Positions 6,737-63,735 of a DNA stretch of 64,000 nucleotides are shown here, piece after piece. The translations under genes were made by a program, and so were the position numbers. The DNA is taken from contig OX597825.1 in assembly GCA_951406725.2 (NCBI GenBank), positions 88,660,001-88,724,000 of the forward strand, given 5' to 3'. The first letter of the stretch is position 1. The number at the start of each line of letters is the position of its first letter. The notes under the pieces are model-generated. The model was given only the letters and a program-made list of their open reading frames with translations, searched no databases and was not told the DNA's origin. Source of the DNA: Octopus vulgaris (Eukaryota).

Positions 6737-9500
6737 ATTGATTGATTGATTGATTGATTCTAGTTTCAGCTTATGAGCTGTGGCCATGCTGGGGCACCGC
6801 CATTTTGTGTTGCTACTTGGTTTCACTTCATGGAGGCTTTATAGCAGCTGCTATTTGGTGCATGAGAGAGTTCGATGCAGCTGCCCTCATCTGCCCCTCC
6901 TGCCGTGAAGTTGGTTCATCTGGGACACCTGACAGGAAGAGATCCAGCTTCATTTTAAAGACATCTGTATCCACCCCATGCAGGTCTCTCAGGTTCTTCG
7001 GGAGGATATTGAAGAGCTGTGGGCCTCGGAAGCCCAGGCTATCACAGTATCTTGTCCTACATCTTGATGGCAGGTTTGGAGTCCTAGGCACCACGCAGTG
7101 GCGCCCAGTTCTGGCATTTGCGTAACTCTCGATGCCAAAGTTCAGGACACTTCCCTCCAGGATCTTCCAGATGTATATTATGGCATATCTTTCCCGCCTA
7201 CGCTCCAGGGAATATAATTTTAATCTCTTGAGTCTTTCCCAGTAGCTTACATTCTGCATAAAGGCTATCTTCTTTGTGTAGCTTCGTTGGATCGCCTCAA
7301 GTTCTGTGATCAACTTGACACTGGATGGTGACCATAGCTGAGAGCAATAGTCAAAGTGGCTTAGGACAAGTGTCTTCCAGAGGACCATCATGGTTTCTTG
7401 TTCTCTTGTTCTAAAGGTTCTAAGAATCCATCCAGCCAGCCGTCTACATTTCATTGTCAGTTTAGCAACATGTACATGAAAGGTCGCGTCATCACTCATG
7501 TGAATACCCAGGTCACGCACTGATTGTGCCTCTGGGATTGCAATCCCTCCGGGTCCAGTGTATTCATTGGGTATTGCATTCAGTTTTGCATGCTGATAGT
7601 ATAAAGCTTGAAACTTTCCAGCATTGAATTGCATGCTATTCTTTTCAGCCCACTTGTATATTTCGTCCAGCTCACATTGCAGGTGTTTAGTGTCCTCAGG
7701 GTTCTGTATTGCCTGTGAAACTTTTGTATCATCTGCATAACTTGTGATCGTGGCTCTCTGCGTGGCTGAGGGCATGTCTGAGAGGGCCATTATGAACAGT
7801 AGTGGTCCCAGAACAGTGCCCTGCGGAACACCGCTCACTATTTGTGTGTTAATGGAGGTGGCCCCATTGGCTACTACCACCTGACTTCTATCCTTCAGAA
7901 AGTCATGAAGCCATTCTCCCAGTTTTCCAACTATGTTGAGATCACGCAGTTTGTGACATATCATTCCATGATCGACTTTATCAAAGGCCTTTGCAAAGTC
8001 GAGATATATCACTTCCACATTTGAGTGGTTGAGCAGCCGTTTCAGCACCCAGTCATAGTGTTGTAGGAGCTGAGTTAAACAGCTTCTCCCTGGTCGGAAA
8101 CCATGTTGGGTGTCGGGCAGCAAGTCATTCTCTTCAAGGAAGGTGATCAGCTTCCTTCTGACTATTCGTTCCATGACCTTGCTGATGTGTGAGGTCAGAG
8201 AGATAGGTCTATAGTTCTTGGCTTCCGCTCTGCTACCTCCTTTATGAATGGGGCATATTTTACCTTCCTTCAGTTTTCCTGGAAGTTTGCCAGCTGCAAG
8301 GAAGCTCTGAAAGAGGAACTGCAGTGGTCTTGCTAGGACTCTCTTACATGCTTTTAGGAGGATTGCCGGGAATCCATTGGGGCCAGTAGCTGAGTCTGTT
8401 TTCATTTCATCTATAGCCTTGGTTACATCGTCTTCCTTTATATCGATGTAATCTATCGTCGCCGCCTCTGATTTTATATCTGCAGTGGTAAAAAAGTCAG
8501 TTGGATTGGTGATTTGGAGATGCCCAAGGGGTGGAGTGAAAACACTCTTGAATTGCTCATTCAGTATTTCACTTACCCTCATTGGTTTTCCTGTAAGTGT
8601 GCCATCCTTTTCGAGGAGTGGCCCTATTCTACAGTGCACTGTAGCTGTTTCTTTGGCATACCTGTAGAAAGCTCTGGGGTTAGATTTTATGTTTTCTATA
8701 GCCCAGGCTTCTTTGTCTGCTCTTTCTTTTTCATGGGAGAGTTGCAGACATTTTTCGATTTCCAACAGTTTTATTTTTAGGCGGGACTTTTCACTGCTTT
8801 CAATCTGTTTGTTTAGGCGATTTGAAAATTTCGTACGCCGTCTGATTAAAATTTCCTCTCTCTGGGGATTTTGTTCTTGTGTACAGTGGCCTTTCTCTCT
8901 GGGACACATTTGTAGCATATGGCTTGCATTACAGACATGAATTGTTGAAGTTTCACGTCGATGTCTGGCGAGGAGAGACATTTAGGCCAGTTTTGTTTGA
9001 GGATCTCTTTCTCAATTTGTTTCCAGTTTGCCTTATGGTAGTTCAAGCTGGAAAGATTTTGAGGGTTTCTTGTAGGCTGCATGTCCGTGCTCTCTTTTGG
9101 CCCGTACATGGTCAGCTCTATCATGTTGTGATCCGAGAGTAGTGTCGGTGTCACTTTCACATTATGGATGAGATCCATGTCATTTGTGAAGCAGAGATCC
9201 AGTGTGTTACCTGCCCTGGTTGGTTGGAGTATTACCTGCTCCATGTACAGGGTGTTGATGAGGTTCAGGAGGGACCTCGCCTGTCCTCGTTCACATCTTG
9301 TCATTCCTGGGAGAGAAAGGCCCTCGGGCCATCTGACATTGGGCAGATTGAAGTCTCCCATAAGAAGCATACCTATGTGTTGTTCTAATGTGGTTAGAAT
9401 TTCTTCTATTTTTATAAGGCAGTCTTCAAACTTGCCCACATGGCTTGGGGCATCTGGAGGGCGATATGTAGCACACACAACTACATCAAGTTGCCTAATA
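6737..9500 (-). mobile_element. CR1-group LINE family A, 5'-truncated, ORF2 (APE endonuclease C-half plus RT) with one frameshift
   Basis: YRPP, GDFN, TLDL, SDHN endonuclease motifs (ORF 8846-9478); [42 protein letters not shown] (ORF 6828-8981); (AATC)n tail; TA runs at both ends. Confidence 0.95.
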
Positions 9501-9613
9501 TGTATATATATATGTATATATAAATATATATATATATATATATATATATATATATATATATATATATATATATATATATATATATATATATATATGTATA
9601 TATATATATATAT

Positions 9614-9962
9614 GTAAAGGGTAAAAAAGACCTCCTTCGGTCATGAATGACCATGGGATTGCACCTAGAAAGTTACCCTCCAAGACACAAGTCCGGGCAA
9701 GGTTGTTTATGGAAGACCAGCAGTCGCCCATGCATACCAGCCTCCCCTCTCCACACCACCAGTGTTATCCAAGGGAAAGACAAAGGTCGATACAGCTTGG
9801 CACCAGTGACGTCGCAACTCATTTCTACAGCTGAGTGAACTGGAGCAACGTGAAATAAAGTGCCTTGCTCAAGAACACAACACGCAGCCCGGTCCGGGAT
9901 TCGAGCTCACAACCTCACGATCGTAAGCTCGACGCTCTAACCACTGAGCCATGCGCCTTCAC
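9614..9962 (-). mobile_element. Full-length tRNA-derived SINE with CORE-like central domain
   Basis: Minus-strand head GGCGCATGGCTCAGTGGTTAGAGCG...GAGCTCGAATCCC (A/B boxes), then TTCTTGAGCAAGGCACTTT...CAGCTGTAGAAATG resembling CORE; TTTACCC-like tail; embedded in TA arrays. Confidence 0.85.
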
Positions 9963-61122: not shown

Positions 61123-63374
61123 TATTGATTGTCTTATTGAACAGATGAAATATTGAATATAAAATATTAAGGGACTAGTATACATTCTTGCATTAAAACA
61201 GTCTTCAAGAGTGTTTCAAATTTCGATTATCCCCATGTGGTGAGTTGTAATGCAATATATATATATATATATATTGTGTGTGTGTGTGTGTGTGTGTGTG
61301 TGTGTGTGTATGTGTGTGTGTGTATTGTATTACAACTCACCACGTGGGGATAATCGAGAGTCTCTTCCAGTCTTTTATTACTGTGTATATATATATATAT
61401 ATATATATATATACGTAACATCCGCGGATACATGTTTAGGGAGTTTCTAAGCTTCAGGCAGTCCGTTGCAGGTAAAGAAAATAAAAAGTCGATGGTACAA
61501 TCAGAAACAACAACATTTATAGGAATCGAAGGATATGCACTTTATTCCATGTCGAAGTAACGAGGAGGTTCGATAAGTTTAAATTTTCCCTGTAGCTAAT
61601 GTGGATACCAATTTTCTGTGTAACTGCATAGTTTCTGTTGATACAAATGCGAATAAAAACCCGAACAGAGGCTGTGGAATAGGTAAAATGCAGCTTACAT
61701 ATGTTTCTTAGCTAACTGATGTTATAACTACTCAATTTAGCTAAGCATCAGGCTTGGCTTAATTGAATGAAGGTTACGTTATCGCTTGGAATTTCCTTGT
61801 TAACTTACGGCAGATGTGATTTGAAATGAATAAAGAAGCCGGAAGTATAGAAAAAAAGGAAAAAAAAACGTTTGAAGAAATAACATGAGCAAGTAAGAAA
61901 GGGGAGGATGGGGTCAACTATGTGGGAGTGATCTGCAGGATTATCTAGTCGGAAAAATGCTGAGACAACCAACAAAATGCACGTCTATTTATTGCTAGGG
62001 TTACATCATCTTCGGTATCTCATGCTTCTCTCCTGTATTCTGCACATGGTGTAAGACTATAGTTAAAGATGTTTATTTATTCAGCATACTAACTAAAACC
62101 AAAAATAAAAAGAACGTGTTTGGGCTCCGAAATAACTTTATTGCCTTCGAAGAATCAAAGGAAGAAATTTAGTTTGTGGAAATCTAACCGAATACTTCCT
62201 GTGTGTGTGGAGGGGTGAGTGCGGTGCAAAGAAAAGAAATATATTAGTCGTGTCATATTTCATTTTGCCCGTGCGCTATTATATCTCCAGACAGCACTTG
62301 TCACACTAAAGTGACTTCATTTACGCTGTTATAGAGAGAATAAATTAACTTTTTCTTCAAAAGAAAACACCGTTCTCTGTGATAAATGATTTCACAAAAG
62401 AGTTTCACACCACCACTAAAGAAACAGGAACGAAACTGAGCAATGGTTTTGTCTATTCACAGTATTTTTGAGGTGATTGTGTGTGTGTGTTGTTGTATAT
62501 GTGTGTGTGTGTTATTGTATGTGTGCATGTGTGCGTTTGTTTCCGTGTTTGAACGATTGGGAGTACGTCTGTGGCTGTGTGCATGCATAGTTAGGTAGTT
62601 AGTACACATCGCACTGTTTAACCCAGCCTTCAGCCTCGTCTAAGATACACACATTTTTGTCAAAATCTGGTGTCCCTCGTTACCTATTAAGTAGAAACGT
62701 GGAAGCTGGCATTGCGTGAAAGCAAGTCAAGCAACTAATCTTACTCTATACAACAACGAAGATTGCATTGAATAAAATGATGTTTGAGGAATCTCCATCA
62801 ACAGTAAGTATTCAGTCCTAATACTCCAACATCTTCAAAATTCTTCTTCAAACCAAGAGAGCATCCTTTACAGCTATGTGACCAGATAAAACTTTGACAA
62901 TATTTTAAGAGGAAAATATCGGAACAAGGAAATTTTCTGTATGGTTGCCTCCCCTCTAATAGTTGTCTACGTCTAGTTAACAAAATCTCGTGTAAGTATA
63001 AACAAGACCTGGGTCCTTATATACATTTTTATATTGCTGGTATATTACAAACTACAAAATGAACAGTAAGCTGAATTCATATTTAAAACAGAAGTAACTT
63101 ATAACTGCCAAAGCGGCAGAGATTGGTTGAAATGGTCATATTTCGTAGGCGAATATCTACATACCCGAATACCTATATAAGTGAGTTTCAATACAAATGA
63201 TTCGACTGAAAAACCGTAACTCAGACCGGTGCATTATGCGAGCCTGACTAACTCTGTGTGCGGGGTGTAGGTATGTCTGAATTTTCTGTGTGCAGAGAAG
63301 CTACATTGATACATGATAGCAAAAATATAAATCACACGTGAAAAATGACTTTTGAAAAATAGATGAACTAAAGT

Positions 63375-63735
63375 AGGCGTATGAGTGGCTGTGTGGTAAA
63401 TAGCTTGCTTACGAACCACATAGTTCCGGGTTCAGTCCCACCGCGTGGCACTTTGGGCAAGTGTCTTCTACTATAGCCTCGAGCCGACCAAAGCCTTATG
63501 AGTGGATTTAGTAGACGGAAGCTGAAAGAAGCCCGTCCCCCCAACATCGCTTGACAACCGATGCTGGTGTGTTTGCATCCCTGTAACTTAGCGGTTCGGC
63601 AAAAGAGTCCGATAGAAAAAGTACTAGGCTTACAAAGAATAAGTTCTGGGGTCGAATTGCTCGACTAAAAGCGGTGCTCCAGCATGCTCGCAGTCAAATT
63701 ACTGAAACAAGAGAGTAAAAAAGTAGAGAGTAAAA
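63375..63735 (+). mobile_element. Full-length tRNA-derived SINE with LINE-A-like 3' end
   Basis: A box TGGCTGTGTGG, B box GGTTCAGTCCC; 3' GCGGTGCTCCAGCATGCTCGCAGTCAAATTACTGAAAC plus GAGAGTAAAA repeats. Confidence 0.88.

Follow-up and report, generated by a model that had tools for sequence, protein, structure and literature searches.

Detailed dissection of the 3' recognition signals of long interspersed nuclear elements (LINEs) has centred on the L2, R1 and R2 elements. Stem-loop tails shared with short interspersed nuclear elements (SINEs) constitute the rule among stringent LINE/SINE pairs (PMC3747384). In ZfL2, deletion or disruption of the stem-loop abolishes retrotransposition, and the protein of open reading frame 2 (ORF2) binds it through the linker between endonuclease and reverse transcriptase (RT) (PMC4176376), while UnaL2 is reported to require its internal loop, which contains a U-U mismatch (PMC5135761). 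Mollusc LINE/SINE tails with compensatory changes are also on record (PMC4824008, PMC4758252, PMC11481361), and a 2016 review states that experiments had not confirmed a role for the 3' stem-loop in molluscs and other invertebrates (PMC5135761). The present analysis concerns a twin-hairpin 3' element in 64,000 nucleotides of the Octopus vulgaris genome (contig OX597825.1, positions 88,660,001 to 88,724,000), hereafter the window, in which it closes the CR1-like LINE families A, B, B2 and C as well as a high-copy SINE. Folding models and comparison with relatives suggest that the element is a conserved two-helix module of an old CR1-like clade, which likely serves as the signal to which the ORF2 protein (ORF2p) binds at the onset of reverse transcription, and that the clade's A/C branch likely supplied about 40 nt at the end of the SINE.

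In family A (6763-6802, minus strand), the first hairpin consists of 4 bp, a G×G opposition, a G·U pair followed by 3 bp, and a 4-nt loop; the second comprises 5 bp and a 4-nt loop, and is followed by AAAC and an (ATCA)n tail. The A that the initial annotation drew as a linker between the hairpins actually pairs with an upstream U, so the two hairpins abut directly. All seven motif sites annotated initially were found again with matching coordinates and strands, and two further family-A ends were added. One of these, at 5215-5250 on the minus strand (element 5211-5253), lies within a 1.5-kb tandem duplication, while the other, at 31790-31825 on the plus strand (element 31787-31829), which terminates the copy at 29206-31845, has a single decayed G (G>C) adjoining the mismatch. 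Family C (33897-33937, minus strand) has a 5-bp outer stem, G×G and a 4-bp C(UUCG)G second hairpin, followed by AGAA and a (TTTAAGGA)n tail. Family B (23216-23266, minus strand, with a short 5'-truncated copy at 21456-21506 on the same strand) features an extended first hairpin and a (TTCTAAGTTA)n tail; its earlier drawing as helices of 6 and 5 bp needs four G at the junction, where the sequence has three, one of them having been counted twice. Family B2 (element 32678-32729, plus strand; body 32415-32746) ends in a (ATCAAAGT)n tail. The G×G opposition falls at 6798/6785 in A, 33932/33919 in C, 23260/23240 in B, 32685/32705 in B2 and 63673/63686 in the SINE, and the element stands directly upstream of the tail repeat at 7/7 LINE ends in the window.

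A strict descriptor of this architecture calls for G×G with G·U as the next pair, at least 3 bp in each of the inner and outer stems, a further hairpin of 4 bp or more at a distance of 0-1 nt, and RAA after it. It gives nine matches in 128 kb, that is, both strands of the window: the seven LINE ends and two background matches. Shuffled 3' regions match in 0/500 trials each for A, C and B and in 1/500 for B2. A relaxed descriptor without G×G returned well over 100 matches and had no discrimination. The fold had been described as covarying, which within the window is borne out for the second hairpin, with two-sided change in three of four pairs, and much less so for the first, which is mostly invariant (1/8). 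For the five window families alone, 2/500 shuffles paired as well, and slid registers paired only 22-43%. The second hairpin of family C is present in the minimum free energy (MFE) structure of the isolated core and of a 64-nt span-limited fold, and is missing from that of an 81-nt flanked fold. Among Rfam covariance models no family fits the element: positions 6735-6900 give one irrelevant match (E 4.8) outside it, and across the whole window the matches listed (150 of 210) consist of microsatellite-driven microRNA noise alone. A hammerhead ribozyme reading was rejected, with no CUGANGA core by eye and no Rfam match.

Families A, C and B are represented by LINE copies that lack their 5' portion; they carry an APE endonuclease, an RT and short tandem tails. 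The family-A LINE (6740-9497, minus strand; RT ORF 6828-8981) is truncated within the endonuclease and has (AT)n at both ends; family C (33879-35954, minus strand; ORF2 33951-35954), likewise flanked by (AT)n, shares 74% amino acid identity with A; and the family-B body, whose 3' element was given above, occupies 23197-25132 on the minus strand. Pfam RVT_1 and Exo_endo_phos_2 are matched in the window LINE pieces, in P0004 and in the database loci L004 and L005. Tails are tandem repeats of 4-10 nt, not poly(A), in A, B, B2, C, L001, L004 and L086. The label CR1-like reflects domain order, tail type and motifs. The nearest named homologues of family C are Argonauta hians proteins (62-63% identity). 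Family C DNA is present in 20 of the 24 sequencing runs listed, across eight organism labels, and no RNA run is among the runs listed as carrying matching DNA. Octopus vulgaris is reported to harbour 169 CR1 families, with 13 active CR1 families, and 893 of its 900 recently active SINE families are unclassified (PMC13282606). The tandem duplication around family A measures 1.54 kb (4721-6264 versus 6259-7802, 94% identity) and includes the 3' end of a family-A copy. A further LINE, family D (26861-27570, plus strand), is a B-like ORF2 fragment with 69% DNA identity to B and without a 3' end; it is interrupted by a segment whose 109-nt repeats lie in inverted orientation at 27553-27661 and 27813-27921 (96% identity), possibly a miniature inverted-repeat transposable element.

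The relatives of these families place the element in a deep lineage. In a FastTree phylogeny of 151 RT sequences (window pieces, long-match loci and proteins from a chosen 24 of 120 homologues), A, C, B, L001-L006, L024, L040, L086, L087 and homologues form one clade among CR1-like elements (support 1.00), within which B joins L004 and L005 (0.91) and is separate from a group of A, C and Argonauta (1.00). Three loci without an RT core (L060, L076 and L077) were placed in the clade by C-terminal similarity. An extra C-terminal PDEP..SNS motif is a feature of the clade. ORF2 identity is about 42-45% between the branches that keep G×G (A/C, B, L001 and L004). L031, by its tail an avian-type CR1 locus, lies near but outside the clade and is without the module by the descriptor. 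From 3 of the 64 parts of the metagenome collection, 400 relatives were obtained and the best 80 retained, most of them distant CR1s. The genome scan gave 91 relatives, of which 80 (L086-L165) were retained; many of them come from prokaryotic genome bins whose contigs with eukaryotic LINE ORF2s likely reflect host contamination. A viral sequence collection yielded five distant RT loci and no motif match, and C-terminal alignment searches of 5, 5, 301 and 301 genomes gave no new in-clade 3' end.

Seven in-clade database loci have enough 3' sequence for comparison, six with a real tail and one (L077) without a true 3' end; 16 loci (6 in-clade, 10 outgroup) were excluded for too little 3' sequence. 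L001 and L004 both show the same architecture written in different stem letters, the former including G×G and G·U and the latter with a 2x2 internal loop. L086 has both hairpins and GAA, with G·U then U×U replacing G×G/G·U; L060 has the second hairpin, GAAC and a weak first hairpin with U·G; and L076 fits by eye only. In these five loci the module stands directly before the tail repeat. The strict descriptor matches 2/7 in-clade regions (L001 and L004) versus 1/33 outgroup regions, with 1/700 and 8/3300 matches in the respective shuffles; the sole outgroup match, L162, looks like bacterial coding DNA, and the overall rate is 14 matches in 1.175 Mb. An MFE test is passed by 4/4 window ends, 2/7 in-clade regions (L060 and L086) and 0/26 outgroup regions with a tail; in this test the automatically located tail was wrong for L004, L076, L077 and several outgroup loci. 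Together, 4/6 true in-clade 3' ends pass one automated test, descriptor or MFE, and isolated-core MFE structures show both helices in A, C, B, B2, L001, L004 and L086. The initial annotation had attributed the fold to a cephalopod LINE radiation, which finds no support: the fold also occurs in L001, L004, L060 and L086, and B sits with L004 and L005. Its occurrence on two deep branches and in unrelated database members identifies it as a clade trait and not a cephalopod invention.

Covariation was assessed in eight lineages (A, C, B, L001, L004, L060, L076 and L086) with registers placed by hand; B2, a near-duplicate, and the SINE, a decayed copy, were left out, as was L005, for which a register could not be established. 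Pairing is found in 88/96 cells, and 9/12 columns show two-sided change; shuffles average 57.7 paired cells, and 0/5000 reach 88. The constants of the module are its outer stem, an internal loop of 1x1 or 2x2 size, in most cases G×G, beside G·U or U×U, and an abutting hairpin of 4-5 bp that ends 17-20 nt after the mismatch, with (G/A)AA within one base. Retention of G×G, as originally proposed, applies to the window families and is typical rather than universal beyond them, at 6/8 lineages, and a U lies 3' of this position in 8/8. Likewise, the 4-nt loop of the second hairpin is kept in the window families and ranges from 3 to 6 nt outside the window, while the first apical loop varies from 3 to 14 nt. 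ORF2 runs into the module in L004 and L005, with stop codons inside, and apparently does so in several homologous proteins. Read-through peptides of the form GG..W[PTSA] occur in 6/113 homologues, WR..MA in 1/113 and an SGGPPRL-like end in 8/113, each pattern being found in 0/5217 control windows, with patterns picked post hoc and proteins related. Since GG..W[PTSA] and WR..MA ends force the GG..UGG letters of the first hairpin in two frames, they lend further support to the module.

Several results weigh against a conserved two-helix module. Taken one sequence at a time, folding gives weak z-scores (-0.2 to -1.6), with B (-3.0) and B2 (-3.3) as exceptions, and the decayed family-A copy scores +0.12. 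L001 folds differently once its upstream flank is included, and L005, with ORF1 and ORF2 intact, retains just the 5-bp outer helix and GAAC and has no convincing second hairpin, its internal loop being of the L086 type. Blind MAFFT alignment followed by RNAalifold on six cores gave no consensus structure; the alignment put L004 out of register. A covariance model built from octopus only reached the 3' ends of L076 (its top 3'-end match, E 0.22), L001 (1.5) and L060 (3.7) at weak E values, did not recover those of L004, L086 and L005, and had its best match (E 0.022) inside an ORF. The shuffle control for the eight lineages is also generous, because the registers were chosen by hand to show pairing and kin share letters. 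As to the coding part of L005, its ORF1 (247-1686; 479 amino acids) is Cys/His-rich, with a PHD-like cluster and three CCCH-like fingers by eye and no Pfam match at E 0.1.

Among other explanations, the one that survives best holds that only the second hairpin with (G/A)AA, or only the first hairpin, is the signal, G×G being merely a tolerated, inherited mismatch. This is possible, if doubtful. It draws on the replacement of G×G in L086 and L060, on the L086-type variant of L005, and on the near-invariance of the first hairpin in the window, which descent alone explains; moreover, internal loops 4-6 bp from the apical loop are common in stringent tails (PMC5135761). However, both helices covary in distant members, and G×G persists at the ORF2 divergence given above, with the adjoining U kept in every lineage. 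A second explanation accepts the fold and assigns it to another step, such as RNA stability, 3'-end formation or protection, ORF1p packaging, or translation control at the ORF2 stop, with RT specificity coming from the tail repeat alone. The stop codons within the module of L004 and L005, and the hint of the same from read-through peptides in other families, fit this explanation, and conservation shows selection on structure, whichever step makes use of it. Nevertheless, the SINE is non-coding and SINEs are untranslated, yet it has kept exactly the module of about 40 nt and nothing upstream, and the textbook indication of RT recognition is a 3' end held in common (PMC3747384), which makes a different step fairly unlikely. 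That GC-rich 3' ends from a recent common ancestor fold by chance is very improbable: most copies do have low folding z-scores and blind consensus folding failed, but the same pairs are kept by different letters at about 40% ORF2 identity, and the descriptor's background rate is roughly one match per 100 kb.

A role for the conserved two-helix module in RT recognition thus seems rather probable, and a four-step mechanism can be proposed for it. First, the two helices would stack coaxially, as their linker of 0-1 nt implies. Second, the basic region between endonuclease and RT would bind the distorted helix, by analogy with ZfL2, and the internal loop would take part in recognition, by analogy with UnaL2. 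In the Rev response element of HIV, G·G pairs can make the major groove wider for a basic helix, which serves here as an analogy only. Third, for target-primed reverse transcription, the (G/A)AA run and the tail repeat would place the end of the RNA on the nicked target, with priming from the tail repeat. Fourth, SINE RNA carrying a copied module would be mobilised in trans. A bolder version, offered tentatively, is that this CR1 sub-clade reads its template through a stacked two-helix G×G/G·U junction and not an apical loop. Such a clade-wide code would allow cross-mobilisation of divergent families and of the dominant octopus SINE, whose partner lineage would thereby be identified, with octopod LINEs also targeting (AT)n.

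The high-copy SINE (63375-63720, plus strand) has a tRNA-like head by eye, an A-type element at 63669-63708 and an AAAGA-rich tail. It is very abundant, with 229,979 and 251,191 matching contigs in two sequencing runs. ARAGORN found no tRNA in it, Rfam returned no match at E <= 5 for 63350-63750, and the segment at 63450-63490 looks CORE-like by eye. For the copy annotated at 63671, the proposed fold stands when majority letters are used: three letters of its first hairpin have decayed (63670, 63687 and 63688), and in contigs from four runs the pairing letters are the majority at 84/76/99/97%, 82/88/99/100% and 79/81/100/100% of depth, respectively. The fifth pair of its second hairpin is unconfirmed, as no T>G change appears among the differences listed. 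In the second copy (41760-42151, plus strand), which contains an internal microsatellite, the claimed fold at 42122 fails, since the copy stops within the second hairpin, most of which is missing, and runs into an AT stretch. Over the last ~40 nt the SINE shares 27/40 identities with family A, or 30/40 using the three majority letters, whereas upstream the likeness to the LINE is at background (0-3/10 identities per decile). Its first hairpin is of A/C type, and its second is closest to that of A, with one compensatory change. These sequence comparisons suggest that the last ~40 nt were likely borrowed from the A/C lineage.

Whether A or C themselves mobilise the SINE, as initially suggested, is a separate matter. 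The SINE tail is nearest to the A/C type, but two points speak against either family as the direct mobiliser: the tail repeats differ, AAAGA-rich in the SINE versus (ATCA)n in A and (TTTAAGGA)n in C, and (AT)n tracts surround the LINE copies but not the intact SINE copy. Given the differing tail repeats, the window may not contain the true partner, and a sister family of A/C may fill this role. Octopus OR1 and OR2, tRNA-derived CORE SINEs (Ohshima and Okada 1994), are on record as cited in PMC4758252 and PMC4824008; the window SINE may well be one of them. A second tRNA/CORE-like SINE, flanked by (AT)n at both ends, is located at 9615-9957 (minus strand), with a partial copy at 22848-23049. 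It ends with a hairpin of 5-6 bp followed by GAA, one compensatory pair off the second hairpin of family B, and a hairpin containing tandem G·A can be sketched further upstream, although it is not the MFE structure. It is possible that this SINE is also served by the same CR1-like clade.

The genomic context of the LINE copies suggests a preference for (AT)n targets in octopod members of the clade. When 5' truncation points are included, 13/15 CR1-like LINE ends have an (AT)n tract no more than 40 nt away, the background being 5.5%, and both ends away from such tracts belong to the duplicated copy. The ends examined were 6760/9497, 21453/21680, 23213/25132, 26861, 29206/31832, 32415/32733 and 33895/35954. 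The database relatives L001, L004, L060 and L086 show no (AT)n association at their 3' ends. The ends of the one intact SINE copy are 1953 and 2290 nt from the nearest (AT)n tract, and those of the second copy are 129 and 224 nt away. A literature search on (AT)n preference in LINEs found nothing in titles or abstracts. Elsewhere in the window, a repeat of about 580 nt occurs at 16109-16685 and 54772-55360 (84% identity), with trinucleotide repeats on its flanks.

The bipartite fold is without description in the literature searched, beyond whose scope lie the databases Repbase and Dfam, the papers of Ohshima and Okada (1994/2005) and of Kapitonov and Jurka (2003), and the SINEBase and Nishihara supplements, which may bear on it. 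The word octopus occurs 0 times in the extract of a 2013 SINE/LINE review with a pair table (PMC3747384), and the extracts of octopus and mollusc repeat studies contain nothing on such tails (PMC9115989, PMC9068888, PMC10294476, PMC13282606). The best reading of the models is that the element represents a known kind of signal, the stringent recognition tail, in a bipartite form new to the literature searched. As this class of mechanism is textbook knowledge, the surprise is moderate. Compact and conserved throughout a deep CR1 lineage, the module nonetheless provides a precise mutational target and a structure-based clade marker, and a likely partner lineage can be named for a very high-copy SINE of a genus in which most SINEs have no classification.

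Besides OR1 and OR2, three described systems are the closest points of comparison. Avian and turtle CR1, together with the turtle PolIII SINE, likewise combine an ORF2 containing APE and RT with a short tandem tail and SINE sharing; however, the avian-type CR1 locus (L031) is without the module and outside the clade, and the present clade has the extra PDEP..SNS C-terminus. The bivalve LINE CR1-14_CGi (CR1-Zenon) and its SINEs BivaV-SINE2 and BivaCORE-SINE1 likewise represent a mollusc CR1-group partnership whose stem-loops carry compensatory changes, but the CR1-Zenon tails are AT-rich and bear no sequence likeness by eye to the octopus module (Nishihara 2016, PMC4824008; Martelossi 2024, PMC11481361). 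The tails of the L2 clade (UnaL2/UnaSINE, ZfL2-1 and ZfL2-2) also consist of a 3' stem-loop with a small internal loop and a short tandem repeat, and are also shared with SINEs (PMC4176376, PMC5135761). Whereas they have one stem-loop with specificity in its apical loop, the present module has two abutting hairpins with free loops, a conserved internal loop and (G/A)AA. This combination of variable loops with a conserved internal loop and (G/A)AA would constitute one mechanistic departure from L2 that is worth testing.

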